Source: an uncultured Gammaproteobacteria bacterium
GTDB taxonomy: Bacteria > Patescibacteriota > Patescibacteriia > UBA1558 > UBA10009
Direction of reading: 5' to 3'
DNA length: 64,000 bases
Assembly: GCA_964588165.1 (NCBI GenBank)
Contig: CAZPMS010000003.1
Span: 10,031-74,030 of the forward strand
The notes beneath the pieces were generated by a model that was not told where the DNA came from, ran no database searches, and saw only the letters and a list, made by a program, of their open reading frames with translations. A program made the position numbers and the translations under genes. Numbering within the stretch: the stretch's first letter is position 1; the number at the start of each line of letters is the position of its first letter. Shown here one piece after another: positions 9,380 through 45,451 of the stretch.

Positions 9380-10429
9380 TTAGTAATCGCGAAAGTATTC
9401 AGAACTAGGCTCATCATTTACCACCGATGTAATCAGGTCGCCAAAATAACCCGAGGCGTCTACCACAATAAATTTCTCTGGACCGAAATCCAAAAACTCT
9501 TGTGGAATCGGATTGGAATTGGTAGTAACAAACGCCGTCAACCAACCCTTATTAAAAGCCTCTTTTAAATTATCATACGTCTTACCGGGGGCCGGATCAA
9601 AATGAGGCGCAAAGGCATAAATGCCTTTATTGGTCTGCTGGCGAAGGCTTTTGCAGCCGCCCTTGAGAGTGCCCAGAGTAAGCGCCATGTCATCAAATAA
9701 TCCAATATTTTGGCCTACAACTTCACCAAAAAACTGCTGCCTGGAAAGTGAATTTTCAACCCGGTGATCATGCTCTTTGGCCGCTAAAACGATCGGCGTT
9801 TTAAGGCCTAAAAGGGTGCTAACCTTAATTGCCCTCGGGCTTGAGCCCCAATCAGTTGCCGAAACTTGGTCAATACCCATTTCCTTTGCTTTTTCAATCA
9901 GCAAGCTTAGCAAGTAAAATCGTCGCCGGTAGCATGGTGAAAAAAATCCAAGATGCGATGATTGATGCAGGTCAAAACAGTAAATTGACTTTGGCCCCAA
10001 GTTTGCAATCTCCCTGGCAATACTTACAGCATTGGGATCATGGCCGTCTGAATGATCAATATCATCTTTAGTGCAAAACCAAGAAAGAATAATATAAATC
10101 TCTTCAGCATTCGCGCAAGAGCTGTATATCTGCTTCAGCTCTTCAAGCGGCGATCCAATGCCGGTATACTGCAAACTGGTAACAATAAAAACCTGTTTTC
10201 CTTTAAAAGTTACACCATCTGGTCTAACACATCTGGGATAGCCATTCCCCCAAGGCTCAGTGTCAAAAAATACCGGCTCAACACCAATGTATTCACCTAT
10301 GCCACTAACCAGGGAATGATTTGTCCTGCCTGAAACTATGGCAAAATTCTGATGATTTAGTGCTTTACCTTTACTGTTCACGAGTCCACCCTCCTTATGA
10401 CCGTTATTTTTATGTGCTTTGATATTCAT
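9380..10429 (-). CDS. prs: Ribose-phosphate pyrophosphokinase (PRPP synthetase) family protein
   Basis: N-terminal Prs domain pattern (FAIVSGRTNHSLVSGIGEYIGV...DGV...GKQVFIVTSL). A DLHQ...GFF motif. A PRPP-binding loop, LFDDMALTLGTL. Confidence 0.65.
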   Translation of the reverse strand: MNIKAHKNNGHKEGGLVNSKGKALNHQNFAIVSGRTNHSLVSGIGEYIGVEPVFFDTEPWGNGYPRCVRPDGVTFKGKQVFIVTSLQYTGIGSPLEELKQIYSSCANAEEIYIILSWFCTKDDIDHSDGHDPNAVSIAREIANLGPKSIYCFDLHQSSHLGFFSPCYRRRFYLLSLLIEKAKEMGIDQVSATDWGSSPRAIKVSTLLGLKTPIVLAAKEHDHRVENSLSRQQFFGEVVGQNIGLFDDMALTLGTLKGGCKSLRQQTNKGIYAFAPHFDPAPGKTYDNLKEAFNKGWLTAFVTTNSNPIPQEFLDFGPEKFIVVDASGYFGDLITSVVNDEPSSEYFRDY

Positions 10430-10514: not shown

Positions 10515-13280
10515 ATGGGTTTTTTAGACAAATTATTTGGAGACGGTAATGAAAAATACCTAAAAACCCTCCAACCTACAATAGATAAAATTAATTCACT
10601 CGAAAAGGATTTCGAGAGTTTTTCTAATGATGAATTAAAGTCAAAAACTAATGACTTAAAATTAATGGTTAAGGATGGGAAAAAATTAGATGATATTTTA
10701 CCGGAAGCTTTTGCTTTAACCAAAGAAGCTGCCAAGCGGACTTTAAACATGAAGCACTATGATGTCCAACTTTTAGGAGGCATTGTGTTGCACCAAGGCC
10801 AGATTGCCGAAATGAAAACCGGTGAAGGTAAAACTATAACTGCCACTCTGCCGATATTCTTAAATGCTTTAGCCGGCAAAGGCGCCCATTTAATTACGGT
10901 AAATGATTATTTAGCCAGAAGAGACTCCGTTTGGATGGGGCAAATTTATAATATGCTGGGATTAACCATAGGTTGTATCCAGCATGACAGTGCTTTTATT
11001 TATGATGTTAATTATAAAGCTACAGAAGAAGTTGAAGAAGAAAGAGATAGGGGAATAGTGGTTAATGAAAACTATTTAAGGCCGGTGAGCAGGAAAGAAG
11101 CCTACGAGGCAGATATTACTTATGGCACCAATAATGAATTTGGCTTTGATTATTTGCGCGATAATATGGTCCAATCTTTAGAACAAAAAGTCCAACGGGA
11201 TTTGAATTATTGTATTGTAGATGAAGTGGACTCAATTTTAATTGATGAAGCCAGAACTCCGCTTATTATTTCTGCTCCGGATATGGAATCAACCGATAAA
11301 TACTTCCAATTTGCCAAACTGGTAAAAACTTTAAAGGAAAATGAAGATTACAATATTGATGAGAAAATGAAAGCGGCTACATTAACTGATAAAGGTATTG
11401 AAAATATTGAAAAAGCCTTAGGCGTAGATAATATCTACCAATCCAAAGGCATTCAAACGGTTCATCATTTAGAATCAGCCCTAAGGGCCGAAACTTTATT
11501 CAAAAAAGATAAGGATTACGTGGTAAAAGAAGGTGAAGTTATTATTGTTGATGAATTTACCGGCCGCATGATGTACGGCCGAAGATATTCCGAGGGCCTC
11601 CACCAAGCAATTGAGGCCAAAGAAGGTGTTAAGGTCCAACGTGAATCCAGGACTATGGCCACTATTACTTTCCAAAATTATTTTAGGCTTTATGAAAAAT
11701 TGGCCGGCATGACAGGTACGGCCGCCACCGAATCGGAAGAATTTTCTAAAATTTATAACCTGGAAGTAACAGTAGTACCTACTAATAAGCCAAATATCAG
11801 GAAAGATTTGAATGATTTAATTTACAAAAATGAAATAGCCAAATATAAGGCTGTTATTGAAGAAATTAAAAAAAGAAAGGCAGCTGGCCAGCCGGTTTTG
11901 GTTGGTACTATTTCCATTGAAAAAAATGAACTCCTGGCACAGCTTTTAGAGCAAGGCGGTGTTGAATATAATGCTTTAAATGCAAAAAACCACGCTAAAG
12001 AAGCGGAAATTATCGCCCAGGCCGGTAAAAAAGGTTCTGTTACCCTGGCCACTAACATGGCCGGCAGGGGAGTTGATATTATATTAGGCGGCAACCCAAC
12101 TGACGATAAAGAAGCAGAAGATATTAAAGCTTTGGGCGGTTTGCACGTGATTGGTACAGAAAGGCATGAATCCAGAAGAATTGATAACCAGTTAAGAGGT
12201 AGGTCCGGCAGGCAAGGGGATCCGGGATCAACCCAGTTTTTTGTCTGCATGGATGATGATTTAATGAGAATTTTCGGTTCCGATAGGATGAAAAACATTA
12301 TGACCACTCTAAAAGTTCCGGAAGATATGCCCATTGAAAATAAATTAATTACTAAATCTTTAGAATCAGCCCAAAAAAAAGTGGAAGGCAATAATTTTGA
12401 TATTAGGAAACATCTGGTTGAATATGATGATGTTATCAGCAAGCAACGGGAGGTAATTTATAAAAAAAGAAATCAAGTCTTAAAGCTTTCAGCCGGAGAA
12501 CAAACTGATGAATATAAATCTACCAAGGAAATGGTTTTGGAAATGCTAGCCGAAGAAATTACAAATCTGGTAAATTTCCATGCTGTTTCTGAAAATAATT
12601 CCGGCATTAACTATAAAGAGATTACAGAAACTATTGGCGCTATGTTCCCGCTGGATGATGAGATAAAAGAAAAAATTAACCAAGAAAAAACTCAGGAAAG
12701 TTTAACTGACTATTTAGTTAACTTAACTAAAGATAAATACCAACAGGTAGAAACAGATGTGGCTGGCATGCAGGAACTCCAAGGTGAAGCTGATCCTTTA
12801 AGAAACGTGGAAAAATCTTTAATCCTAAATACCATTGATACTTTTTGGGTGGAACATTTAGAAAATATTGACCATTTAAGAACCGGTATTGGCTTAAGAG
12901 GTTATGGCCAGCGTGATCCTTTAATTGAATTTAAAAAAGAATCATACCAACTGTTCCAATCATTGCTTTCGGCCGTCCAAAACCAGGTTATTTCTACTAT
13001 TTTTAAAATTGGCAAAGCAGCCCAAGTTACTCTTTCACCAATTGCTACTGCCAATATGAAATTCAGCGGTGCCGCTAAAACTGCTATTGATAATAGAAGC
13101 AGCATCCAGAGAATGGCCCAAAATACCAACCAGCCTCAAAAACCAGCTCCTGCTAAAAAACTTGAATCAAAACCTAAAGATGAATCTGGCAAAAAAGTTG
13201 GCCGGAATGATCCATGCCCCTGTGGAGCGGTTAAATCGAACGGCACTCCAAAAAAGTATAAGCATTGCCATGGAAAGTAG
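10515..13280 (+). CDS. secA: Preprotein translocase ATPase SecA
   Basis: 921 aa with DEAD-like motor motifs (MKTGEGKT, DEVDSILIDEARTPLIIS) and a C-terminal zinc finger CPCG...KYKHCHGK. The last 18 codons appear to be element-derived (see findings). Confidence 0.95.
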   Translation: MGFLDKLFGDGNEKYLKTLQPTIDKINSLEKDFESFSNDELKSKTNDLKLMVKDGKKLDDILPEAFALTKEAAKRTLNMKHYDVQLLGGIVLHQGQIAEMKTGEGKTITATLPIFLNALAGKGAHLITVNDYLARRDSVWMGQIYNMLGLTIGCIQHDSAFIYDVNYKATEEVEEERDRGIVVNENYLRPVSRKEAYEADITYGTNNEFGFDYLRDNMVQSLEQKVQRDLNYCIVDEVDSILIDEARTPLIISAPDMESTDKYFQFAKLVKTLKENEDYNIDEKMKAATLTDKGIENIEKALGVDNIYQSKGIQTVHHLESALRAETLFKKDKDYVVKEGEVIIVDEFTGRMMYGRRYSEGLHQAIEAKEGVKVQRESRTMATITFQNYFRLYEKLAGMTGTAATESEEFSKIYNLEVTVVPTNKPNIRKDLNDLIYKNEIAKYKAVIEEIKKRKAAGQPVLVGTISIEKNELLAQLLEQGGVEYNALNAKNHAKEAEIIAQAGKKGSVTLATNMAGRGVDIILGGNPTDDKEAEDIKALGGLHVIGTERHESRRIDNQLRGRSGRQGDPGSTQFFVCMDDDLMRIFGSDRMKNIMTTLKVPEDMPIENKLITKSLESAQKKVEGNNFDIRKHLVEYDDVISKQREVIYKKRNQVLKLSAGEQTDEYKSTKEMVLEMLAEEITNLVNFHAVSENNSGINYKEITETIGAMFPLDDEIKEKINQEKTQESLTDYLVNLTKDKYQQVETDVAGMQELQGEADPLRNVEKSLILNTIDTFWVEHLENIDHLRTGIGLRGYGQRDPLIEFKKESYQLFQSLLSAVQNQVISTIFKIGKAAQVTLSPIATANMKFSGAAKTAIDNRSSIQRMAQNTNQPQKPAPAKKLESKPKDESGKKVGRNDPCPCGAVKSNGTPKKYKHCHGK

Positions 13281-13442
13281 TCTCTACATTATAATTACTT
13301 AGTATTAGCTAAGTTTAAATTAAGTTCATATATAACACGGTGTATACGAAAAAACAGCTCACTTCTTGAGCTATTTTCTGCAAATTTGACTTATTTTTCT
13401 ATTATCAGTATTATATAAATATACTAATATATTTATATTACT

Positions 13443-13661
13443 ATGCGTAAAATAGATTTAAAAAATGTAATCTGGAAAGAAGGCAAATATTACGTGGCAC
13501 AATGTCTTAATGTTGATGTGTCTAGTTTTGGTAAAACAAAAAAAGAAGCTCTAGCTAATTTAGATGAGGCATTAGAGTTATATTTTGAAGATGTACAAAT
13601 ATCCAAGGTTACCAAAGTAGAAAGACCAGAGGTGGTAAGGCTATCCCTACGCTATGCCTAA
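13443..13661 (+). CDS. hicB: HicB-family antitoxin (UPF0150-like)
   Basis: 72 aa with the pattern KEGKYYVAQC...GKTKKEALANLDEALELYFE, typical of HicB N-domains. Overlaps the downstream hicA by 8 nt. Confidence 0.7.
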   Translation: MRKIDLKNVIWKEGKYYVAQCLNVDVSSFGKTKKEALANLDEALELYFEDVQISKVTKVERPEVVRLSLRYA

Positions 13662-13872
13662 ACTTTATTCATCTAGTAAAATTATCAAAGTCCTATTATC
13701 TAAGGGCTTTATTTTTATATCCCAAAAAGGCTCTCATGCCAAATATCGCAAATTCAATAGACTAGTTTTAACGGTTATTGTGCCTATTGGTAAAAAAGAA
13801 ATTCCAATAGGAACTTTTAAATCTATTTTACGCCAAGCAAATTTAATAGAAGAAGATTTCAAGAAAAAATAA
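13654..13872 (+). CDS. hicA: HicA-family mRNA interferase toxin
   Basis: 72 aa with KIIKVLLSKGF...QKGSHAKY...IPIGTFKSILRQANL, the HicA/YcfA consensus. Confidence 0.75.
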   Translation: MPKLYSSSKIIKVLLSKGFIFISQKGSHAKYRKFNRLVLTVIVPIGKKEIPIGTFKSILRQANLIEEDFKKK

Positions 13873-13926
13873 GTCAAAATTCGCATCCGCACACAAGTTA
13901 TATGAAATAATTAAATTTTTAGAACA

Positions 13927-14190
13927 AAAAAACACCTAGGCCAATAATGACAGCCTAGGTGCTACGAATAAGCTTACCTTGCAGCTCTGAGCTGGGTGCG
14001 ATACAGTCTCCAGCTAGTATTGTTACTTCTCCCAGTTGGCCTGCTTCTTCTAAAGAAAAAAGGAAGAAAGCTTAAGGTAGTTATTTGATACCAGCCTGGG
14101 CACATCATGTTCGCGTAAGACAGCAGAGGTCAGAAGGTGCTAGCTAGCATTTTGCTTATCCGGTTTTGATCCCTTTGTATAAAAAAACTT
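13927..14190 (-). ncRNA. Putative sRNA of about 264 nt, GC-rich relative to the host, convergent with hicBA
   Basis: On the - strand, TTGACA (complement of 14222-14227), a 17-bp spacer, then TATATT (complement of 14199-14204). It ends at an intrinsic terminator: hairpin cacctaggc/gcctaggtg at 13934-13962 followed by a U-run (plus-strand A-run 13927-13933). There is no convincing ORF (best is 47 aa without an RBS). Confidence 0.4.
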
Positions 14191-14374
14191 AAATACTAAT
14201 ATATAATATATTTAATATTTTGTCAATAGTAAGTAATAGCTCAATCAAAACAAAATTAAAAAAATTAAATAAGAAAAACCGCCGAGTTGTGTAACTAGGC
14301 GGTTTTGTGATACCTCAACACTCATCATTTTTTTCTTCTTAGAGAATCTATTCTAACTGCACTACCGAATCTCT

Positions 14375-14452
14375 CGGAATGATCCATGCCCATGCGGAGC
14401 GATTAAAGATGATGGAACTCCAAAAAAATACAAACATTGTCACGGAAAATAA
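14375..14452 (+). pseudogene. Displaced 3'-terminal fragment of secA (zinc-finger tail [25 protein letters not shown]), an attR-like remnant
   Basis: 17 nt identical to secA 13203-13219 (cggaatgatccatgccc), then synonymous-diverged codons for the same C-terminal peptide, ending in TAA. There is an in-frame stop immediately upstream, so it is not a complete gene. Confidence 0.65.
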
Positions 14453-14631
14453 TTCTTTTTTAAAAAAATCCTGTATCCACCATAATAAAGTGATGAAAAC
14501 AGGATTTAATGATTGTAATTATAGCCAAGTGCCTGAAGGACTAACTGGTCCTTAGGTTGGCTTGTAGCCAGCGATCCAAAAGCCGGAATCCCAATAGTAA
14601 CCGAAGATAATTCTCGCTCTGGGCTTACCGC

Positions 14632-15003
14632 TTAAATTATCGAATCGCGCGTTACACCAGTACCCATCTCTATTCTTCCAGTGGGTCCCGTTGGGGAATT
14701 CCTCGGCGAAAATCGGTTTTGTTCATTAAGCGTAGCTAGTGTAAAAGGATCAACAACACGCAGGCCACGTTCTTCACAATAAATGTCAACTTCTTCGTCA
14801 GTGGTCATACCAGATTTTAGTTCGAACAAGAAAACATCGATTTCCCCGCCACTACCCCTCGGCATTTGTTCAATCAACCTATGGCCAATAATCTCTCGGC
14901 CAGTACCCTCTAGCACATTCAATGAAGTACGGCTACAATCCACACTGACACGACAGACTATCATGTCGCCATGGTCGCTCTGGATAAATTTAAAAGACAT
15001 GGT
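14632..15003 (-). CDS. Hypothetical protein (island cassette gene 1); probable start MSFKF at 15003
   Basis: RBS agaaaggataatacc before the ATG at 15003. The first 17 residues of the tracked ORF are read-through of the shared repeat. GC-rich. A terminator hairpin and U-run lie downstream at 14465-14510, so the gene may be frameshifted or longer. Confidence 0.45.
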   Translation of the reverse strand, partial: TMSFKFIQSDHGDMIVCRVSVDCSRTSLNVLEGTGREIIGHRLIEQMPRGSGGEIDVFLFELKSGMTTDEEVDIYCEERGLRVVDPFTLATLNEQNRFSPRNSPTGPTGRIEMGTGVTRDSII

Positions 15004-15021
15004 ATTATCCTTTCTTGTTGT

Positions 15022-15140
15022 TGAATGAATTGTACGAATAATAAAGCACTGCATCAGATTCCAGCTATATTGTCAATAATCTATATAAAATAAAAAACCA
15101 CCTTAAGCTATGTCGAAAGGCGGTTTTGTAATAACCAAAA
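15022..15140. repeat. Direct repeat copy 1: promoter, 5' UTR and terminator module of the island cassettes
   Basis: About 119 bp, near-identical to 16161-16280. Contains an upstream terminator (aaaaaaccacc...ggcggtttt) and a leftward TTGACA promoter. Confidence 0.8.
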
Positions 15141-15148
15141 TTAGCTAT

Positions 15149-15400
15149 TTAAGTAAACAATAAGATGCCGGCGATTAGTATGCCAATGATTGGGATGCCA
15201 AATAGAATTATGCGTGTACGAAGTTTTTGCCTGGCTATCAATACGCTTCTACCTGCCTTACCTTGCCTCTGGCACTTATAGCATACACCGTCTTTATGAT
15301 GGATTGTATACCATCTTTCGCCACAATGGATGCAATCTTCCATCTCATCCCTTGATCCTTCAGCCAGTTCGGCCATTAAGTCACCTGTATGGTCGCCCAT
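15149..15400 (-). CDS. Small zinc-ribbon protein with a C-terminal TM helix (island cassette gene)
   Basis: CIHCG...CYKCQ double CxxC plus a hydrophobic tail. - strand promoter TTGACA-17-TATTAT (complement of about 15445-15473). Confidence 0.5.
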   Translation of the reverse strand: MGDHTGDLMAELAEGSRDEMEDCIHCGERWYTIHHKDGVCYKCQRQGKAGRSVLIARQKLRTRIILFGIPIIGILIAGILLFT

Positions 15401-15622
15401 AATCTACCTATGTTTGTTGGATTTAAAAAAACGTTAACATCGAATAATAACATAAACAAATAAACTTGTCAATAATCTATTTAAAATTAATTCATTGGAA
15501 AGCTTAAATAATTACGATAACGATTTAAGAATATATAAAATCCCTTAAAAAATTTATCATAAATAAAAGCGTAAATCATGTAGACTTACGCTTGTAATTC
15601 AGAAACTTTCTAAATTTTCTAC

Positions 15623-16126
15623 TCATTGATCCTGATAAAAGCCGATCCAAAATACACCGCCTAGTACAAAAAATAATACGTACAAAACTAGGAAAAGCCA
15701 TTGGTACGGAAAAATAACAATTTTGGTTGGCTTAATAACATGAGAGCTTTCATCAACTAAGACTTCTCGAATCTTCATTAAAGCAATGCCTTGTTCTGAT
15801 TGCGTTACAGTTAATGAATCAATTTTAAAACGTCTTATGATTGTTGATGTGGTTTGTTTGGCTCCCTGAATTTGTGAATACCAAATAGCAACATCATTAC
15901 TAGGTCGAAAGAAGGCAAAAGCAGAGTGACCACTAGTCAAGCCTCTCTCTTCGATTTTCAGAAGAGCATTGTTAAGAAACTCATCAGCGCGCTCTATGCT
16001 CGGAGCCTCAGCTGCTAACTTAAGCCAATCGCCGATATCACGATCAAAGGTGTAGTCAAGAATGCAGTGGTAAACACTAAGGCCCAGAAAGAAAAGAGTA
16101 AAAGCTATGGCAATAAACTGTTTCAT
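15623..16126 (-). CDS. Hypothetical membrane protein (island cassette gene 2); start MKQF at 16126
   Basis: N-terminal and C-terminal TM segments. The upstream residues of the tracked ORF are encoded by the repeat (GTG start). Uses the shared promoter/UTR module. Confidence 0.5.
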   Translation of the reverse strand: MKQFIAIAFTLFFLGLSVYHCILDYTFDRDIGDWLKLAAEAPSIERADEFLNNALLKIEERGLTSGHSAFAFFRPSNDVAIWYSQIQGAKQTTSTIIRRFKIDSLTVTQSEQGIALMKIREVLVDESSHVIKPTKIVIFPYQWLFLVLYVLFFVLGGVFWIGFYQDQ

Positions 16127-16160
16127 CTCTAAATCCTTTCGCCCTATTAAGAGCTTTTCT

Positions 16161-16280
16161 TTGAATGAATTGTACGAATAATAAAGCACTGTATCAGATT
16201 CCAGCTATATTGTCAATAATCTATATAAAATAAAAAACCACCTTAAGCTATGTCGAAAGGCGGTTTTGTAATACCTCAAT
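16161..16280. repeat. Direct repeat copy 2 of the promoter/UTR/terminator module
   Basis: Near-identical to 15022-15140 (1-2 mismatches). A third, partial and diverged copy lies at 16583-16650. Confidence 0.8.
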
Positions 16281-16304
16281 TCATTGCTTTCTCTTATTGG
16301 TGAT

Positions 16305-16577
16305 TTAATTAGAATCTATTCTAACTGCAACACCGAATTTCTCGGAGTGATGCATAATTAGATCACCAACTGCTTTATATGGAACCTTGCCAGCTGCCCA
16401 AATTCCAGGCTTTCCCTCAATGCATGCATGATAGTCAGCTGTTCTTTTTGTGACAACGATAACTATGGTCTTTTCTTTGGGCCGCCCGCTAAGGTATATG
16501 AAGAAAAAAAGTACCCAAGCCAACAAAGCGCCAACCCCGCCAACAATAATGTAGGTTACCAGGTCTTCCATGACCAT
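16305..16577 (-). CDS. Small membrane protein (island cassette gene 3); start MVMEDL at 16577 with a ggag RBS
   Basis: One TM helix. The C-terminal codons are supplied by the element-end/att-like repeat (16311-16355). Confidence 0.4.
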   Translation of the reverse strand: MVMEDLVTYIIVGGVGALLAWVLFFFIYLSGRPKEKTIVIVVTKRTADYHACIEGKPGIWAAGKVPYKAVGDLIMHHSEKFGVAVRIDSN

Positions 16578-16726
16578 CTCCGAAGTTGAATGAATTGTGC
16601 GAATAATAAAGCACAATATCATATTCTAGTCATATTGTCAATAGTAGTACAAAAAAACATTAAACAAAACACCCATACAAAAGCTTGCATTTTTTTAGTA
16701 ATTACTCTAAAATAGTACGCAAGATT

Positions 16727-18427
16727 ATGGCAAATAAAGTAAAAGTAGTTACCAGAAGAAAAATCTGGCTAAGTTTCTTAGCCGTTTTAGTTTTGGCCTT
16801 ATTTTGCGGCTTTGTTGTTTATCCTAACTTACCCCAATCATTCCCGGGTAAGTCTTTTTTTAGCGGATTTTATCCACATTTGGGCTTAGATTTACAAGGC
16901 GGAACCCATTTGGTTTACCAAGCTGATGTTTCTACCATAGAATCCGGTGATCAAGATTCAGCCTTAGAAGGCGTAAGGGATGTTATAGAAAGGCGGGTAA
17001 ATGCTTTTGGAGTTTCTGAACCTTTGGTCCAGACCAAATCCGGCAACCGCTTAATAGTAGAACTGGCCGGTGTCCATGATGTAAATGAAGCTATCAAGCA
17101 AATAGGTGAAACACCCTTGTTGGAATTCAAAGAATTGGATGAAACCATGCCGGAACCTTTAACTGATGAGGAAAAAGCCGAGGCTATTGAATATAATAAA
17201 GGTGTTCTGGATAAAGCTAATGAATTAATATCCAGAATTAATTTAGGTGAAGATTTTGCCACCTTAGCCACTGAATTTTCCGAAGATCCTGGAAACAAAG
17301 ATAACGGAGGTGATTTAGGCTTTGCCAAAAGGACAACTTATGTAGAAGAGTTTGATAAAGCAATTTTTGAAGATTTACGCATAGGCCAAACCACCAGCCA
17401 GCCGGTTAAAACCCAGTTTGGCTATCATATAATTAAAAAGGAAGAAGAAAGGGGAGAGGCTGAAAATTTAGAAGTTAGGGCCAGGCATATTTTACTCACC
17501 ACTAAAAATGAGTTTACCAAAGAAGCTCCTCCGGCTGATTGGAAAAATACCCAGCTTTCCGGAAAAAACCTGCAAAAAGCCCAAGTGGAATTTGATCCAA
17601 ATACCGGCCAGCCAAATGTTGCTTTAGATTTTGATAGTGAGGGACAAAACCTGTTTGCCGAGTTAACCAAAAGAAACCTGCAAAAGCCAATCGCCATATT
17701 TTTGGACGGCAGTGCCATTTCTGTGCCAACAGTACAAGAAGAAATTTCACAAGGCAGGGCTATAATCTCCGGCAATTTTAATATAAATGAAGCCAAGCTT
17801 TTAGTGCAAAGGCTTAACGCCGGTGCCTTGCCGGTTCCTATAGATCTTATCAGCCAGCAAACTGTCGGGCCAACTTTAGGCAAAATTTCTTTACAAAAAA
17901 GTTTAATGGCCGGTTTAATCGGCCTGATTGCCGTTATCTTTTTTATGCTTTTCTATTACCGCTTATTGGGTTTGTTTGCTGTTTTAGCTTTACTAATCTA
18001 CGGCTTAGTTACTTTGGCCATATTTGAGGCGTGGCCCGTAACTTTAACCCTTTCGGGAATTGCCGGTTTTATTCTTTCCATAGGTATGGCTGTTGATGCC
18101 AATGTTTTAATATTTGAAAGAACCAAGGAAGAATTAAAAAACGGCAAACCGCTGGGAACTTCTATAGAAGAAGGGTTTGCCAGGGCTTGGCCTTCTATAA
18201 GGGATTCTAATATTTCCAGCATAATAACCTGTTTAATTTTATTCTGGTTTGGTTCCAGCATTATAAAAGGATTTGCCATAACGCTGGGCGTTGGTATTAT
18301 TATTTCCATGTTTTCCGCCATTACCGTAACCAGGACATTCTTGAGGTTAACCTCTGGCAATTTCTTCTCCAAACACCTTGCTTTATTTGGCATTAAAACA
18401 AAACCAACAGATAAATTTCCTACCTAA
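16727..18427 (+). CDS. secD: Protein-export membrane protein SecD with an embedded parvulin/PpiC-type PPIase-like domain in the periplasmic head
   Basis: SecD TM1, P1 head and C-terminal 6-TM bundle. Residues roughly 150-260 carry GGDLGF..FDKAIF...TQFGYHIIK and ARHILL, the parvulin rotamase signature. The Met at 16727 is preferred over 16685. Confidence 0.85.
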   Translation: MANKVKVVTRRKIWLSFLAVLVLALFCGFVVYPNLPQSFPGKSFFSGFYPHLGLDLQGGTHLVYQADVSTIESGDQDSALEGVRDVIERRVNAFGVSEPLVQTKSGNRLIVELAGVHDVNEAIKQIGETPLLEFKELDETMPEPLTDEEKAEAIEYNKGVLDKANELISRINLGEDFATLATEFSEDPGNKDNGGDLGFAKRTTYVEEFDKAIFEDLRIGQTTSQPVKTQFGYHIIKKEEERGEAENLEVRARHILLTTKNEFTKEAPPADWKNTQLSGKNLQKAQVEFDPNTGQPNVALDFDSEGQNLFAELTKRNLQKPIAIFLDGSAISVPTVQEEISQGRAIISGNFNINEAKLLVQRLNAGALPVPIDLISQQTVGPTLGKISLQKSLMAGLIGLIAVIFFMLFYYRLLGLFAVLALLIYGLVTLAIFEAWPVTLTLSGIAGFILSIGMAVDANVLIFERTKEELKNGKPLGTSIEEGFARAWPSIRDSNISSIITCLILFWFGSSIIKGFAITLGVGIIISMFSAITVTRTFLRLTSGNFFSKHLALFGIKTKPTDKFPT

Positions 18428-18433
18428 CCTCCT

Positions 18434-19501
18434 ATGTTCAAAATAATTCAAAAAAGAAAAATTTGGTTCTCATTCTCCGGTCTTTTAGTATTATTAAGTA
18501 TTTTAGCTTTAATTTTTTGGGGACTTAATTTAGGCATAGATTTTACCGGTGGTAGCCTTTTAGAACTTAAGTTTAATGCCAATAGGCCGGATAACTCCCA
18601 AATTCAAGAAGCTGTTGCCGGTTTAGAATTGCCCAATATTTATATCCAGCCGATTGACGATGACGGAATTTTAGTTAGAACTGTTTCTTTATCCGAAGAA
18701 CAACATCAAGATATTTTAAAAGCAATAGATAAAATCGGTTCTGACGAAACAACCGCTACAGAAGATAATTTACACCCAGAGGCTAAAAATTTGAGTGCTG
18801 AAAATTTCGGCATCACAGGCGAAGGACTGGAAAATCTTAAAATAGAAACTATTGGGTCCGGCGGTGAAATGATTGATTTTAATTTAATAGATGATCAGCC
18901 AACAGCTGGTAATTTTAATAGCTTCGAAGAGCTTAGATTTGATTCTATCGGGCCAATTATCGGCCAAGAGCTTAAACAAAAAGCTATCTACGCCATTATT
19001 ATTGTTTTAATTGCGATTATTTTATACATAGCTTATGCATTTAGAAAAGTTTCCCATCCTGTTGAATCTTGGAAATTCGGCTTATCCGCTATTGTTGCCT
19101 TGGCCCATGATATTATCATAATCACCGGCATCTTTGCGGTTTTAGGCCACTTTTTAAATATCCAGTTAGATTCTTATTTTGTTACCGCCCTTTTAACGGT
19201 TTTAGGTTTTTCGGTCCATGATACCATTGTAACTTTTGATAGGACCAGAGAAAATTTGCGCAGGCACCAAGATAAAACTTTTGAAGATGTAGTTAACTTA
19301 AGCGTTAATGAAACAATCGTCCGTTCCCTCAATACTTCCTTAACAACTATATTTGTTTTGCTGGCCATTATTTTATTTGGCGGTGAAACTATTAAATATT
19401 TTGTTTTAGCTTTAATGATGGGTGCCATAGTTGGAACTTACTCATCAATCTTCCTGGCAAGTCCGCTATTAATGATTTGGTATAAAATAAAAAAATATTA
19501 A
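18434..19501 (+). CDS. secF: Protein-export membrane protein SecF
   Basis: SecF TM topology and conserved C-terminal bundle. Directly follows secD. Confidence 0.9.
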   Translation: MFKIIQKRKIWFSFSGLLVLLSILALIFWGLNLGIDFTGGSLLELKFNANRPDNSQIQEAVAGLELPNIYIQPIDDDGILVRTVSLSEEQHQDILKAIDKIGSDETTATEDNLHPEAKNLSAENFGITGEGLENLKIETIGSGGEMIDFNLIDDQPTAGNFNSFEELRFDSIGPIIGQELKQKAIYAIIIVLIAIILYIAYAFRKVSHPVESWKFGLSAIVALAHDIIIITGIFAVLGHFLNIQLDSYFVTALLTVLGFSVHDTIVTFDRTRENLRRHQDKTFEDVVNLSVNETIVRSLNTSLTTIFVLLAIILFGGETIKYFVLALMMGAIVGTYSSIFLASPLLMIWYKIKKY

Positions 19502-19535
19502 AAAAAGAACCAGGGTTTATTGGACCTTGATTCTT

Positions 19536-19566
19536 ATGAGTAAACTAGGTTTTAAAACCTAGTTTT
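19536..19566 (+). terminator. secF intrinsic terminator
   Basis: aaactaggtttt/aaaacctagttt hairpin followed by a T-run. Confidence 0.6.
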
Positions 19567-20281
19567 TTTGATGTAGGAAAAAAGTAAAAATGAAGATTAT
19601 AGTTGGTTGTGAAAAAGTTGAGATAGAGAAAGATGAAGATAAAAGTATTAATGATCTTGGCAAAAACAGAAACTAAAGGATGGATATAAACGGAAAAGAT
19701 TATAGAGGATAGAATTTCATGAATTTAGATTGGTCAGGGAATTAAGGATAGGAATTTAAGAAAATGATTAATAACAGAAAAATAAGTGGCGAAAAAAGAT
19801 ATAGGCGTCAGAAAAAATAAAGAGATGATTAAAGGAAGTAATGAGAAGTGGAGTAGTGGTTTTAGAAAGTATATCAGAATTAAGGAGAAAAAAGCATTAT
19901 TAGGTAGTATAAGTAGTAAAGTAAATGGATTTCAGGGAAAAGAGGAATAAGAATGAGGTGAGGATTTTTATCTTCGGGGTATAATTTCACAACTGGCTAT
20001 TAAATTTTCAATTTACATTTTTTTGAGTCTTCTTCCAGAAAGAACTAAGGTTGGCTTTTCTATCCCGCAAAACTATGGAGGAACCATAGCGCGGCAAGGG
20101 ATATTTATTGGAGATTAAGACTAAAAATAGTCATAACCTCCACCCCCGCAGGGGACCTAGTAATTTACTTATAGAATATATTTACAAATTAATCAATACT
20201 TGACGAATATAAGCTTTTATGCTATATTTTAAATATTATAAAAAAATCAATGATTTTGAGGGGAATTAACCAATATTTTTT

Positions 20282-21367
20282 ATGGAAGAATCAATTTTAG
20301 ACAAAGTAATAGATAGCCAAAAATCAGCTGTGGTAATGGATTTCAACCCACAGCAAATTTTAAATTCCTTATTTAAACCATTAAACCAAAGGGAGGTTGA
20401 TGTTTTAACTTTAAGGCATGGCCTGGAAGACAATAAAAAAAAGACTTTAGAAGAAATAGGCAACAAATTTAATGTTACTAGAGAAAGAATCAGGCAAATA
20501 GAAAATACCGCCTTAAAAAAAGTTAGAAATAACGAAAACTTAGATGAACTTCTTAGGCCTGTTGAAGTAATTATAAACCAAACCCTAGAGGAGCATGGAG
20601 GAATTATGCAAGAAGATTCTTTAGTTAAAAAAGTTCTCTTGATTCCGGGTGAAAGCAAAGCGAGCTTCTCCTCCACCAAATTTATCCTTTCCCAACTTTT
20701 AAGCGAAAAATTACACTTTATTTGTACTGATGATAATCTTCATAATTGCTGGAAATTGCCAACTACTTCCATAGAAGAAATACAATCTATTATAAATAAA
20801 CTTATTGGCCAAATTGAAAAAGAAAATCAGCCTTTAGCAACCCAAAACATTATCCAACATTTGGAAGAAGATATGGAGGAGCATGTAGCTGAATCACTTT
20901 TAGAAATTAGCAAAAATGTTTCTACCAATCCTTTTAACGAATGGGGGATGGTTAACTGGAATTCCATTTCTTTAAAAAGAATGAGCGATAAAATTTTCTT
21001 AATTCTAAAAAAAGAAGCCAAGCCGCTTCATTTTACCGATATCGCAAAAAAGATTAACCAAGCCGGCTTTGACCATAAAAAAGCCAACCCTGCTACAATC
21101 CATAACGAACTTATTTTGGATAAAAAATATATTTTAATTGGCAGGGGAATTTATGCTCTAGAAGAATGGGGTTACAAACCAGGCGTTGTTGCCGAAGTAA
21201 TTTCGGAAGTTTTAAAAGAAGCCGGCATTCCTCTTTCTAGGGAAGAAATTATAGAAAAGGTTTTAGAAAAAAGAATGGTAAAAAGAAGTACCATTATTTT
21301 GGCGCTTATGAACAAAGATAAGTTTGCAAAAAATGAATCTGGTGAATATTTAATTGCTTCAAATTAA
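20282..21367 (+). CDS. Sigma-70 region-4-type HTH domain protein with a roughly 270-aa C-terminal region of unknown function
   Basis: N-terminal LTLRHGL...KTLEEIGNKFNVTRERIRQIENTALKKVR, the sigma region 4.2 consensus. A TTGACG-17-TATATT promoter lies at about 20199-20227. Confidence 0.55.
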   Translation: MEESILDKVIDSQKSAVVMDFNPQQILNSLFKPLNQREVDVLTLRHGLEDNKKKTLEEIGNKFNVTRERIRQIENTALKKVRNNENLDELLRPVEVIINQTLEEHGGIMQEDSLVKKVLLIPGESKASFSSTKFILSQLLSEKLHFICTDDNLHNCWKLPTTSIEEIQSIINKLIGQIEKENQPLATQNIIQHLEEDMEEHVAESLLEISKNVSTNPFNEWGMVNWNSISLKRMSDKIFLILKKEAKPLHFTDIAKKINQAGFDHKKANPATIHNELILDKKYILIGRGIYALEEWGYKPGVVAEVISEVLKEAGIPLSREEIIEKVLEKRMVKRSTIILALMNKDKFAKNESGEYLIASN

Positions 21368-21412
21368 ACTTTAAATTTTTATTGGCTATATTTGGCCTAA
21401 ACAAAAACAAAA

Positions 21413-22951
21413 ATGGATATTACTATCGATTTAAGCAGATTTTTTGAACTGATTAATGAAGAGCCAGCTAGCCTTTTATGGTTTTTATTTACCCATGGCG
21501 GTTGGCTTGTTTTAATTATCGTAATTTTATCAATCTTCCTTTATCTTCGTTTATATAACCAGCAAAAAAAATATCTAGAGTCTGTAGAACAAACAATCTT
21601 GGCCATAGATATCCCTAAAGATAATGAACAAAGTTTAGTGGCAGCAGAACAAATATTCGCCAGCCTAGCCGGTATAAAACGCAGCGGCACTTTGGTTGAT
21701 AAATACTGGCACGGCAAAACACAGCTTTCTTTTAGTTTGGAAATTATTTCCCTGGAAGGCTATATTCAATTCTTAATCAGAACCCCTGTCCGATTTAAAG
21801 ATTTGGTAGAAGCTGCTATTTATGCCCAATATCCGGAAGCCGAAATTACCGAAGTAGAGGACTATGTTAAATCTATCCCGGATGATGTACATGAATTGGA
21901 TTCAGATTATAAACTTTGGGGTACAGAATTTAGATTGGATAAATTCAGCGCCTATCCTATAAAAACCTACCGAAGTTTTGAACATCCTTTAACTCAAACT
22001 TTTATAGACCCAATGGCTTCTATGCTGGAAGTAATGAGCAAGCTTGGCCCCGGTGAACAACTGGGCCTCCAGTTTGTAATTGCACCGGTAAATAATAAAT
22101 GGAAAGAAAGAGGCTACCAGCTTATAAAAAAATTAATTGGTGAAAAAGTTGATGCTAACAAAAATTTAGGAGATAAATTAGTAGAGTCTTCTGTAGAAGG
22201 TTTGGGAAAATTCAGCGAATCAATTTATAAAATTTGGGGCGATATTGAAGAAAAAAGAGATGATGATTCTGCGCATCCTAATTTATACCAATATTTAACT
22301 CAAAATCAAAAATTTGTGGTAGAAGCCATAGAAAACAAGCTCTCCAAAATTTCTTTTGCTACAACCTTTAGGGTTTATTATTTAGCCAACACTCAGCGCT
22401 ACCAAAGAGGCAAAGGTGTTAACCCAATAATTGGAGCCATTAACCAATTTAATTCATCCGATTTAAACTCATTCAAAAAAAATAAGAGGTTCACAACCGA
22501 TGCCCACTATTTTTTTGTGGATAAAAGAATTTCTAGAGTTCAAAAAAAACTGTTAAAATTATATAAGAAAAGATCCAGGAAAGGAACTTATGAATTTTAT
22601 TTAGGCACCGAAGAGCTGGCTACCTTATATCATTTCCCTATTATAACTGTTAAAGCTCCTTTACTAAAAAGAACGGAATCTAAAAAAGCAGAAGCTCCAA
22701 CTGCATTGCCTTTGGAGCAGCAAAGAGCCAGCGAGCTTTTTAACCCGCCCACTGAAGATATTTTACCCGCAGATGATGAAGAAAAGTTAGGGGAGCCGGA
22801 CCATAAAATTACCGAATCTTTGCCAGGCTATGATTTTGATAATGACTATTTTGAAGAAAAATTTAAAAAAGACGATTCTACAATAAAAACTCCCAGCCAG
22901 GAATTATCAAAAAAGGAGGACCCTCCCTCAAATTTACCAATTAGCCACTAA
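21413..22951 (+). CDS. Hypothetical membrane-anchored protein (N-terminal TM, large soluble domain, acidic C-terminal tail)
   Basis: 512 aa with a single N-terminal TM (WLVLIIVILSIFLYL). Tightly coupled (8-nt gap) to the downstream ATPase. Confidence 0.5.
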   Translation: MDITIDLSRFFELINEEPASLLWFLFTHGGWLVLIIVILSIFLYLRLYNQQKKYLESVEQTILAIDIPKDNEQSLVAAEQIFASLAGIKRSGTLVDKYWHGKTQLSFSLEIISLEGYIQFLIRTPVRFKDLVEAAIYAQYPEAEITEVEDYVKSIPDDVHELDSDYKLWGTEFRLDKFSAYPIKTYRSFEHPLTQTFIDPMASMLEVMSKLGPGEQLGLQFVIAPVNNKWKERGYQLIKKLIGEKVDANKNLGDKLVESSVEGLGKFSESIYKIWGDIEEKRDDDSAHPNLYQYLTQNQKFVVEAIENKLSKISFATTFRVYYLANTQRYQRGKGVNPIIGAINQFNSSDLNSFKKNKRFTTDAHYFFVDKRISRVQKKLLKLYKKRSRKGTYEFYLGTEELATLYHFPIITVKAPLLKRTESKKAEAPTALPLEQQRASELFNPPTEDILPADDEEKLGEPDHKITESLPGYDFDNDYFEEKFKKDDSTIKTPSQELSKKEDPPSNLPISH

Positions 22952-22959
22952 TTAAAATA

Positions 22960-24555
22960 ATGAAAAATGAAATAACAACTTTTGCCAAAACTAACTTCCG
23001 CAATCAGGAAACGAAATTTGGGATAAAAACCGACGACAGGCGTCGGCATATGTATTTGTTAGGCAAAACAGGCATGGGTAAATCAGTTACCTTGGAGAAT
23101 ATGATTATCCAAGATATTAAAAACGGCAAAGGCGTAGCTGTAGTAGATCCCCATGGAGAGCTGGCAGAAAAGGTTATAAAATTTATTCCCAAAGATAGGA
23201 TAAATGATGTTGTTTATATTAACCCGGCGGACTTGGATTTTCCGGTTGCTTTTAATGTTTTAGAACAAGTGGCGCCGGAGCACCGGCATTTGGTTGCCTC
23301 TGGCTTGCTCGGGGTATTTAAGAAAATTTGGGCAGATTCTTGGGGACCTAGATTAGAATATGTTTTAAATAATGCCATTATGGCCCTTTTGGAATACCCA
23401 GGAAGTACGCTTTTAGGAATTATGCGGATGTTAACTGATAAAGTTTTTAGGAAAAAAGTGGTTAACAAAATCAGCGATCCTGTGGTTAAAGCCTTTTGGG
23501 TGGATGAATATTCAAAATATCCAGATAGGTTCCAAGCCGAAGCAATAGCCCCTATCCAAAATAAAGTTGGCAGATTTTTATCCTCTTCTATGATGAGAAA
23601 TATCGTTGGCCAAGTAAAATCTTCTATTGATTTAAGAAAGGTAATGGACGAAAAGAAAATCTTGCTTTTAAACCTTTCTAAAGGCAGAATTGGTGAAGAT
23701 AACTCCGCTCTTTTAGGAGCGATGATTATTACCAAAATTCAGCTGGCAGCCATGAGTAGGGTAGAGATGTCTGAAGATAAACGGGAAGACTTCTACCTTT
23801 ACGTTGATGAATTCCAAAATTTTTCAACCGAAAGTTTCGCTAATATTTTATCTGAAGCAAGAAAATATAGGTTGAATATTATAATGGCGCACCAATATAT
23901 TGAACAGCTAAAAGATGAAACCAGAGCAGCTGTATTTGGCAATGTTGGCACTATTATCTCATTTAGGATTGGGGCAGAAGATGCAGAATTTTTAGCTAAA
24001 GAATTTAACCCCAGATTTGATGAAATTGATCTGGTTAACTTAAGCAAATACCATATTTATTTAAAGCTGATGATAGATGGAGTTTCATCTGAACCTTTTT
24101 CTGCAACTACTTTGCCGCCTGCTACAGAACCGGAAGAATGGGAAGAAAATTTAAAAAAAATAGTTGATGTTTCCAGGGAGAGATATTCTACCAAAAGGCC
24201 TGTTATAGAAGAAAAAATTTCCCGTTGGGCAAACTTGGAAACTGATTCTACCGATGATTCTCCCGATAAAGGCACCAGTAAAAATTACCGTGGCAGCAAT
24301 CCAAGATCAAATAATGATCAAGATCAGCCCAGGGTAGTGGCTACTTGCGATAATTGTGGCAATAAAACCATTTTAAATTTTGAACCTGATTTAAATAAGC
24401 CCATCTACTGCAAGGACTGCTTAAAGAAAAAATATAAAACTCCGGCCAAAAAAGAAGGCCTTGGTGAAAAAACCCAAAAACAAGAATCTATTTCACTTAA
24501 AAATGCTATGGACCAAAAGGTCCAGGATTTTAAAGGCGGCAGGAATAAAAATTAG
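22960..24555 (+). CDS. VirD4/TraG/TrwB-like type IV coupling-protein-family ATPase, soluble, with a C-terminal zinc ribbon
   Basis: Walker A LGKTGMGKS. VDPHGE and DVVYINPAD...FNVLEQ blocks. A DEFQNF...EARKYRLNIIMAHQYIEQL C-terminal AAD-like block. C-terminal CDNCGN...CKDC. No TM segment. Confidence 0.55.
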   Translation: MKNEITTFAKTNFRNQETKFGIKTDDRRRHMYLLGKTGMGKSVTLENMIIQDIKNGKGVAVVDPHGELAEKVIKFIPKDRINDVVYINPADLDFPVAFNVLEQVAPEHRHLVASGLLGVFKKIWADSWGPRLEYVLNNAIMALLEYPGSTLLGIMRMLTDKVFRKKVVNKISDPVVKAFWVDEYSKYPDRFQAEAIAPIQNKVGRFLSSSMMRNIVGQVKSSIDLRKVMDEKKILLLNLSKGRIGEDNSALLGAMIITKIQLAAMSRVEMSEDKREDFYLYVDEFQNFSTESFANILSEARKYRLNIIMAHQYIEQLKDETRAAVFGNVGTIISFRIGAEDAEFLAKEFNPRFDEIDLVNLSKYHIYLKLMIDGVSSEPFSATTLPPATEPEEWEENLKKIVDVSRERYSTKRPVIEEKISRWANLETDSTDDSPDKGTSKNYRGSNPRSNNDQDQPRVVATCDNCGNKTILNFEPDLNKPIYCKDCLKKKYKTPAKKEGLGEKTQKQESISLKNAMDQKVQDFKGGRNKN

Positions 24556-44766: not shown

Positions 44767-44852
44767 CGGAGTTTTTATTTATATTGACAAAATTCTTAAT
44801 ATTTTATAGAATAAATTGATTTGTTCATCTGATTAACAGGAGGACCAAAGCC
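44767..44852 (+). promoter_or_regulatory. Promoter/leader module A (TTGACA, TATAGAAT, shared leader, AGGAGG)
   Basis: Near-identical to 45112-45187, including the first codons ATG ACA. Confidence 0.6.
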
Positions 44853-45080
44853 ATGACAAGCAATAACTACCCGTGCGTTGGTAAAGTTGTTGCTGAAACA
44901 GGTCTACACATTCAAAATCAACCAAAATCTAAAAGGCAAGGGCAGGCCACTAATCATCCAATGATTACTACTACAGAAAAGGAGAAAAAAAATCATGATT
45001 TTGGCTGTTTTTTAGTTTATCTGCTGCATGACCGCCCGGATCATTGGCCAGGACACCAACCTTCATTCAGTAAAAAATAA
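44853..45080 (+). CDS. Small hydrophilic hypothetical protein (75 aa)
   Basis: Driven by module A. Followed by terminator actccggtt...aactggagt plus a T-run. Confidence 0.4.
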   Translation: MTSNNYPCVGKVVAETGLHIQNQPKSKRQGQATNHPMITTTEKEKKNHDFGCFLVYLLHDRPDHWPGHQPSFSKK

Positions 45081-45111
45081 TAGACTCCGGTTAGTATTAA
45101 TAACTGGAGTT

Positions 45112-45187
45112 TTTTATATTGACAAAAGCTTGCATATTTTATAGGATAAATTGATTTGTTCATCAGATTAACAGGAGCACCAAAACC
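45112..45187 (+). promoter_or_regulatory. Promoter/leader module B (duplicate of module A)
   Basis: tattgacaaaagcttgcatattttataggataaattgatttgttcatcagattaacaggagcacc, about 90% identical to module A. Confidence 0.6.
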
Positions 45188-45451
45188 ATGACATACTTAA
45201 AGAAGAGGTTAGTAGATAACTTTTCTACTTGGTTAGTGGCTGTACTGATATTATTGGGGGGAATATTATCAACAGTTTTTTTTCTCAATAGCTTTATACT
45301 GTTCCTAAAATATCCAACTTGGGCATCGGGCGCACCAGTATTTAGTTCTTTATGTGCAATGATATTATCCTCGGTAGTTTCTTTTGTATACGGAATAAAG
45401 AAAAGCTCGAGCGAACAAAGAAACAAACACAGACCGATGCCAACTTTCTAA
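45188..45451 (+). CDS. Small 2-TM membrane protein (87 aa)
   Basis: Driven by module B. Unrelated in sequence to the 44853 ORF. Confidence 0.45.
   Translation: MTYLKKRLVDNFSTWLVAVLILLGGILSTVFFLNSFILFLKYPTWASGAPVFSSLCAMILSSVVSFVYGIKKSSSEQRNKHRPMPTF

Follow-up and report, generated by a model that had tools for sequence, protein, structure and literature searches.

A repeated terminator-promoter-leader module between secA and secD

The stretch of DNA analysed here, called the window below, comprises 64,000 nt of an uncultured bacterium (positions 10,031 to 74,030 of contig CAZPMS010000003.1, assembly GCA_964588165.1) and is numbered from its first letter. Between the plus-strand genes secA (10515..13280) and secD (16727..18427) it carries an array of four small genes that are all read from the minus strand, namely gene A (14632..15000), gene B (15149..15400), gene C (15623..16126) and gene D (16305..16577). 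Genes A and C are each preceded by a nearly identical block of about 120 nt, which we call the module, and gene D is preceded by a partial copy of it. An earlier note on this DNA, made from the letters without database searches, had drawn attention to two near-identical segments (15022-15140 and 16161-16280) and a diverged third copy (16583-16650), and had read the arrangement as modular shuffling of small cargo genes behind a portable regulatory module.

Self-comparison of the window confirmed the near-identical pair: 15014-15133 and 16154-16273 share 97% identity over 120 nt, and a core of 113 nt within them (15021-15133 and 16161-16273) contains a single mismatch (99% identity). Taken as a whole, the module occupies 15014..15139 in copy 1, with gene B upstream and gene A downstream, and 16154..16279 in copy 2, with gene D upstream and gene C downstream. 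The partial copy 3 (16585..16643, 86-88% identical to the full copies) comprises the leader and promoter of gene D, as the earlier note had it, but lacks the terminator hairpin that the note had also assigned to it, and backs onto the divergent secD promoter. When the window was scanned with a 27-nt core pattern, allowing up to three mismatches, exactly these three sites were found in the 64 kb, and none was found in 100 shuffled sequences. The two full copies are direct repeats with sharp borders and a period of 1,140 nt, and what lies between them is, from one border to the other, a leader, gene C, the promoter region of gene B, gene B and a terminator.

Read on the minus strand, a full module consists of a predicted intrinsic terminator, followed by a promoter of the form TTGACA-17-TAnnnT and by a conserved leader, so that at sequence level the hairpin terminator, leftward TTGACA promoter and 5' untranslated region proposed previously can be recognised in both full copies. 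The terminator is a G+C-rich stem-loop, AAAACCGCCUU-loop-AAGGUGGUUUU, that runs into the U-rich string UUAUUUUAU downstream of the stop codon of the preceding gene; it is located at 15094-15127 plus the U-run in copy 1 (T1) and at 16234-16267 in copy 2 (T2), both on the minus strand. Its stem of 11 bp pairs fully, by way of one G-U pair, only in the minus-strand RNA, while on the plus strand this pair is replaced by an A-C mismatch, and the terminator is therefore predicted to be strand-specific. The -35 element TTGACA begins 18 nt past the terminator and is separated from the -10 element by 17 nt. All on the minus strand, these elements are TTGACA at 15071-15076 and TGCAGT at 15048-15053 in copy 1, 16211-16216 and TACAGT at 16188-16193 in copy 2, and 16636-16641 and TATTGT at 16613-16618 in copy 3, each -10 element being preceded by TG. 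Over the array as a whole, we thus have TTGACA at 17 nt from TACAGT, TATTGT, TATTAT or TATATT (the last two belong to relatives of the module described below), with a TG extension in three cases, all at the level of consensus.

The leader, which in copy 1 spans 15004-15047 on the minus strand, is about 45 nt long and A/U-rich (...GCUUUAUUAUUCG(U/C)ACAAUUCAUUCAA). The ribosome-binding site (RBS) is outside the repeat, AAAGGA at 7 nt 5' of the ATG in genes A and C and GGAG for gene D, and in copy 2 some 20 extra nt separate it from the conserved leader. Each full copy would accordingly end the upstream transcript, restart transcription and supply a leader that stops short of the RBS of the next gene. 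Between copies 3 and 1, the leader is conserved at 29 of 30 positions and the -35 block at 12 of 12, and the stretch of spacer and -10 at 10 of 17. Because the leader has been kept in the diverged copy 3 while the spacer and -10 stretch has not, it may have a function of its own, for example by acting as an operator, by enhancing translation or by conferring stability.

Leader conservation is also the starting point for an alternative explanation, namely concerted evolution of a co-regulated set, in which promoters and leaders that stem from old tandem duplications have been kept alike by local gene conversion and by selection, either for a binding site of a common regulator or for an RNA element in the leader, without any recent insertion of genes C and B. 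In an alignment of the five intergenic regions, the -35 context (A/C)TATTGACAA and the 17-nt register proved to be common to five array units, and a short inverted repeat, (TT)GTGC-N10-G(C/T)AC(AA), which spans the -10 and start region, is improved in copy 3. The predicted folding of the copy 3 leader is better than that of shuffled sequences, albeit weakly. On the other hand, copies 1 and 2 of the leader fold no better than shuffles, and Rfam 15 gave no match at gathering score in the whole window and noise alone (E > 1) when 13850-16720 was searched by E-value. Moreover, the 99% identity extends over the terminator loop and the spacer, which selection would not require, no regulator gene is present in the island, the borders are sharp, and the segment with genes C and B corresponds exactly to the period of the repeat. 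We therefore regard concerted evolution as an unlikely explanation.

One may also suspect that the repeat was created by the assembler, as a duplicated or collapsed contig end, all the more so as some low-coverage contigs are interrupted within the module (at 15079 and 16247). The earlier note had itself named this as the finding that would overturn its reading. However, at least six independent assemblies contain this arrangement; it is 100% identical in JGI contigs of 133 kb (Ga0118721_1000050) and 6.5 kb, in an ENA scaffold of 98.7 kb and in several smaller contigs, and both module copies are spanned, together with their unique flanks, by these three longer contigs as well as by several of the smaller ones. 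Since different samples, assemblers and data providers give the same arrangement base for base, and the copies differ from one another by fixed substitutions, the repeat is real and an artefact is hardly credible.

A third possibility is that the module is a miniature mobile element with an outward-facing promoter, similar to miniature inverted-repeat transposable elements (MITEs). Its size of about 120 nt would be suitable, a promoter and a terminator can be carried by Correia-type elements, and a perfect inverted repeat of 9 nt, AATGAATTG...CAATTCATT, encloses copy 2. Yet the right-hand repeat is missing from copy 1, copy 3 has no partner at all, there are no target-site duplications and no transposase nearby, and the copies are confined to 14.2-16.7 kb of the 64-kb window. 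Nor is the module dispersed elsewhere: it was absent from 185,579 GTDB species genomes and from viral contigs, and its nine matches in a metagenome collection were all chance 19-mers without flanking similarity, it being understood that the source samples lie outside all of these collections. Altogether, we find a mobile element of this type very improbable.

The genes behind the module and their apparent N-termini

The four genes have no sequence similarity to one another, in agreement with the earlier statement that unrelated reading frames stand behind the shared block, and all four have genome-like codon usage in frame. Gene A encodes a soluble protein of 122 aa; gene B a protein of 83 aa with a CxxC...CxxC zinc ribbon and a C-terminal transmembrane helix; gene C, which is followed by a predicted terminator at 15567-15593 (minus strand), a protein of 167 aa in which a helical bundle is flanked by one transmembrane helix at either terminus; and gene D a protein of 88-90 aa with an N-terminal transmembrane helix. 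Two of the open reading frames (ORFs) of the earlier note were correct except for their starts, which we place at 15000 rather than 15003 for gene A (14632..15003 in the note) and probably at 16571 for gene D (16305..16577), where a GGAG is present 6 nt upstream and where an 88-aa gene call in L004 also begins. The note had counted a zinc-ribbon gene among those behind the module with its leader; this did not hold, for gene B has instead a promoter-only relative of the block.

Little could be learned about function. Neither Pfam, NCBIfam, PHROGs nor PADLOC yielded a meaningful match for any of the four proteins, PDB sequence searches were uninformative, and genes A and D retrieved only themselves when 5.8 billion proteins were searched by a word index. 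Gene C is a member of a widespread but uncharacterised family, for which 449 cluster representatives were retrieved at E < 1e-3; it is modelled as a helical bundle flanked by two membrane helices, at a predicted local distance difference test (pLDDT) score of 97.5, and comparison of this model with PDB folds gave none below E = 0.1.

In addition, the duplicated leader gives rise to an error of annotation. If the genes are extended upstream, their products seem to share N-termini ("MQCFIIRTIHST / MILCFIIRTIHST") that start from an ATG within the -10 region of the module, and the earlier note had dismissed these (as "M.CFIIRTIHST") as spurious. We came to the same conclusion: where copies 1 and 3 have the upstream ATG, copy 2 has ATA and its long ORF uses a different frame, and the RBS is external to the repeat, hence the shared N-termini are non-coding. 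A leader peptide, which we also considered, is ruled out by the same loss of the ATG and difference of frame. Public annotations nonetheless carry the extended ORFs, of 140, 188 and 105 aa.

At the other end of gene A, 41 more open codons follow its TAA in the same frame (14509-14631, minus strand); they are weakly coding-like and end before a hairpin at 14466-14507, and gene A may have been truncated by a nonsense mutation. A rescue of gene A by frameshift (into the ...YWDSGFWIAGYKPT* frame) was rejected, given that codon usage does not support it and that the repaired protein has no family match.

Diverged relatives of the module and a relic of secA

Beyond the three copies, the array contains more distant relatives of the block. 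The promoter region of gene B (15444..15490, minus strand), with TTGACA-17-TATTAT at 15444-15472, shares TATAGATTATTGACAA and an upstream A/T block with the modules, at 92% identity over 25 nt (15466-15490), and another promoter-only copy is found at 14201-14231. The latter is part of a diverged block at 14198..14318 on the minus strand, which consists of a terminator, T0 (14275-14306), and a promoter, P_x (14198-14226, TTGACA-17-TATATT). Upstream of this block are 45 nt (14343..14387, minus strand) that remain from a D-like gene; they match the 3' end of gene D (16311-16355) at 89% identity and still encode 14 residues. T0 together with this relic, i.e. 14264-14387, is 69% identical to 16225-16355.

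P_x is predicted to drive a transcript, the unannotated unit X (13925..14195, minus strand), that ends at a strong predicted terminator at 13931-13963. No credible ORF was found in unit X, and no Rfam match in the 13850-16720 scan; its folding is modestly better than chance (z-score -1.9) and its G+C content is above that of the surrounding spacers. From these features unit X would be either a decayed cassette or an unknown non-coding RNA. Pairing of its RNA with the leaders was no better than with shuffles, and an 18-nt complementarity of 14069-14086 to a terminator arm was within chance.

The D-like relic is fused to a relic of another gene. At 14375..14452, on the plus strand and 1.17 kb past the real secA stop, a second secA 3' end is present: 14375-14451 is 81% identical, with the frame preserved, to the last 77 nt of secA (13203-13279), and 22 of the 25 residues it encodes match the C-terminal zinc-binding tail of SecA. 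Of the differences between the two copies, 15 are nucleotide changes and only three are amino acid changes, from which it follows that both copies diverged inside working secA genes, in different lineages. The secA relic and the D-like relic have 13 nt in common (CGGAATGATCCAT), and the roughly 1.1 kb between the two secA ends hold a hicBA toxin-antitoxin pair, unit X and the T0/P_x block. The inverted repeat at 14466..14507 is so positioned that it could terminate transcription from both sides, that of gene A and that of the relic secA when this was still a complete gene.

A diverged duplicate that could have served as anchor and a junction at 13 nt of microhomology are both features of homology-facilitated illegitimate recombination, as reportedly described by de Vries & Wackernagel (2002) and Prudhomme et al. 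(2002). The simplest reading of the junction, judging from its sequence, would be an older insertion by illegitimate recombination: a fragment of a related strain, arranged as secA-3'-hicBA-X-P_x-T0-D', would have been integrated by homologous recombination in secA at one end, and its other end would have been joined illegitimately at the microhomology. The secA anchor, the 13-nt microhomology, the diverged duplicate of the secA 3' end and the truncated foreign gene all resemble that process; unlike in the studies of it, here it is deduced from the scar it left. On this reading, a D-like gene would have been present in another strain as well, with a terminator and promoter shell of the same type but among different neighbours.

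Variable gene content between secA and secD

The window can be assigned to the Patescibacteria, or Candidate Phyla Radiation, because its SecD is 70% identical to the homologue in a Candidatus Komeilibacteria metagenome-assembled genome. Among relatives in which the two genes are syntenic, the gap between secA and secD measures only 85 nt in the closest one, the Komeilibacteria genome just mentioned, and 1661, 3085 and 4599 nt in three others, compared with 3446 nt here, and where the gap is occupied it holds unrelated genes. No comparable repeated module was seen in the gaps of the relatives L018, L024 and L026. Since both the size and the content of the gap vary among relatives, between flanks that are conserved, the interval is a hot spot of insertion, occupied here by an accessory island.

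Minimal mobile elements, as described in Neisseria, are likewise defined by conserved flanking genes. The present locus is similar in that the slot between secA and secD holds whole-gene cassettes that differ between relatives and is nearly empty (the 85 nt mentioned above) in the closest, and also in that it has no dedicated mobility gene, so that exchange presumably proceeds by transformation and homologous recombination. It differs in that the cassettes are separated by a repeated terminator-promoter-leader block that provides internal homology. The likeness comes from the comparison of relatives, the population sampled here being nearly clonal. Minimal mobile elements and recombination hot spots between conserved genes have been treated elsewhere (PMC1797815, PMC3787668).

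The left part of the island, the inserted segment 13281-14374, contains the toxin-antitoxin pair (13443..13872, plus strand). Its hicA gene matches PF07927 at E = 3e-16, and the adjacent hicB-like gene matches DUF7387 (5.9e-07), a UPF0150-like match (E = 0.14) being below threshold. To the right of the island, residues ~158-240 of SecD form an inserted peptidyl-prolyl isomerase (rotamase) domain of the PPIC type, an insertion also seen in Patescibacteria relatives. About 400 nt on the 3' side of secF (19560-19960, plus strand) are nearly free of C on the plus strand and purine-rich, with a GC skew of up to +0.67; no convincing ORF and no tandem repeat were found in them, and no Rfam match when 19480-20300 was scanned. 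Just 3' of secDF, the region 20282-24555 (plus strand) encodes a sigma-70 region 4/HARE-HTH protein, a DUF8128 protein and a VirD4/TraG-like coupling ATPase with a treble-clef zinc finger, which may form a DNA-transfer or DNA-uptake module.

Origin of the repeat

Taking these observations together, the module is probably ordinary regulatory DNA of a small-gene array, which was duplicated by recent recombination in a hot-spot island and doubles as recombination homology. That the recombination was recent is suggested by the two 99%-identical direct repeats that bracket the 1,140-bp segment. We infer both its direction (insertion or deletion) and its mechanism: it would have taken place within one pre-existing junction of gene D, module and gene A, either through a single crossover that inserted a circular or foreign segment with genes C and B and one module, or through unequal crossing-over. 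The repeats could in turn delete or amplify the C-B segment by homologous recombination.

Two contigs have the structures that such events would leave behind. The first, L052 (JGI 3300009405; 5,069 nt, from secF to secA), corresponds to the window minus exactly 1,140 nt and has a single module. The second, L041 (ENA; 1,460 nt), leads from the 3' portion of gene C through gene B and a module to the start of gene C, which is the reciprocal junction. The first 379 nt of L041, however, are the HU-xseA locus of another organism, joined via a shared ~20-mer, and the left end of this contig is therefore a chimeric assembly, which weakens it as proof of a rearranged strain. The string in question, (TT)TAAAATTGATTCATTAAC(T), about 19-21 nt long, is common to gene C (15810-15829) and to the end of the HU gene (L045/L046; L041 340-380). 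Short SPIRE/ENA contigs such as this one should be used with caution as evidence for rearrangements.

Several points weigh against the explanation that we prefer. L052 and L041 are single short contigs, otherwise identical to the reference save for one -35 substitution in L041, and an assembler that collapses or cycles on the 113-nt repeat would yield both junctions; we count them as leads, not as proof. The promoter, its start site and the terminator are predictions at consensus level, and the -10 element of copy 1 (TGCAGT) is weak. The leader of copy 3 is as conserved as its -35 block, a fact for which recent duplication alone is insufficient and which hints at selection. Finally, the remainder of the source genome lies outside the scanned collections.

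As to the shuffling of modules proposed in the earlier note, it receives indirect support from the variability of the island, the recombination scars and the absence of 1,140 nt from L052. The portability of the module fared less well: it turned up nowhere else in the collections searched, no transposon or attC features are associated with it, and the variant contigs are possibly assembly collapses. A stronger version of the same idea would be that the module is the common shell of an integrase-free cassette system operating across Patescibacteria populations, in which self-expressing small membrane-protein genes are excised as circles, re-inserted, or swapped after DNA uptake, in each case through recombination inside the shell. 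We think this quite unlikely; were it true, L052, L041 and the D-like/T0/P_x relic would be direct traces of it, and the shells at 44.8-45.2 kb and in L047 (see below) would be further instances.

Comparison with other cassette-like systems

Tandem small ORFs on one strand that are separated by repeats of about 120 nt, with a toxin-antitoxin pair nearby, bring to mind integron arrays, such as those with the Vibrio cholerae repeats. That the module is the recombination site of an integron-like or Xer-type cassette system could be argued from the unrelated small ORFs, from the one unit precisely missing from L052, and from the heptamer GTTGAAT, which fits GTTRRRY and forms the left edge in both copy 1 and copy 3. 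This heptamer, though, is on the wrong side of the ORFs, and no pair of R'' (RYYYAAC) and R' (GTTRRRY) core sites around an imperfect palindrome of 57-141 nt exists on either strand of 13281-16726, where 0.9 would be expected in shuffles. Folded as single-stranded DNA, the copies have z-scores of +0.2 to -1.4, and just a short, off-centre stem of 11 bp is consistently predicted, unlike the attC fold. Moreover, no integrase or recombinase is annotated within ~10 kb on either side, and each cassette has its own consensus promoter, integron cassettes being mostly promoterless. All in all, such a system is highly improbable here.

Phage morons are reported (Juhala et al. 2000) to be autonomous units of promoter, gene and terminator, and the same can be said of each small gene in this array, which has its own predicted sigma-70-type promoter and intrinsic terminator and is placed between other genes. 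In contrast to morons, the context is not a prophage, the PHROG matches are not meaningful, and the regulatory shell is repeated between units. In the vsp/vsa loci of Mycoplasma, highly conserved 5' non-coding regions precede the genes, and inverted sites and a site-specific recombinase switch a single promoter. Here, too, a conserved 5' leader stands before different small membrane-protein genes in a bacterium with a reduced genome, but all copies are direct, every one of them has a promoter, and a recombinase gene is lacking from the annotation over the distance given above.

Similar shells elsewhere and their implications

A second duplicated block is present in the window, at 44775-44858 and 45110-45193 on the plus strand (88% identity). 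Both of its copies consist of a terminator-like hairpin, a TTGACA-17-TATAG(A/G)AT promoter, a leader, an AGGAG RBS and ATGACA, and they precede unrelated ORFs, 44853-45080 (75 aa) and 45188-45451 (87 aa, hydrophobic). Similarly, in a contig of another organism (L047), a 90-nt block of promoter and leader hairpin is duplicated at 232-321 and 1101-1190 with 83% identity, one copy being located before a homologue of gene C (47% identical) and the other before a pair of paralogous 79-aa genes. Two further contexts of gene C homologues had no such repeat. With two or three cases at hand, self-contained small genes whose regulatory shells have been duplicated locally may be common in these genomes.

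The locus does not reveal a new class of element. What it does offer is a caution for annotation, the error being a systematic one, in that public gene calls translate duplicated leaders into N-termini that are only falsely shared. It also offers a short, insulated pair of promoter and terminator, predicted to be strong, in a lineage for which genetic parts are scarce. Above all, it provides a small-scale picture of how accessory genes are gained and lost in the reduced genome of an uncultured member of the Patescibacteria, where a slot between two genes of the Sec pathway is filled by units of promoter, gene and terminator whose shells would double as homology.

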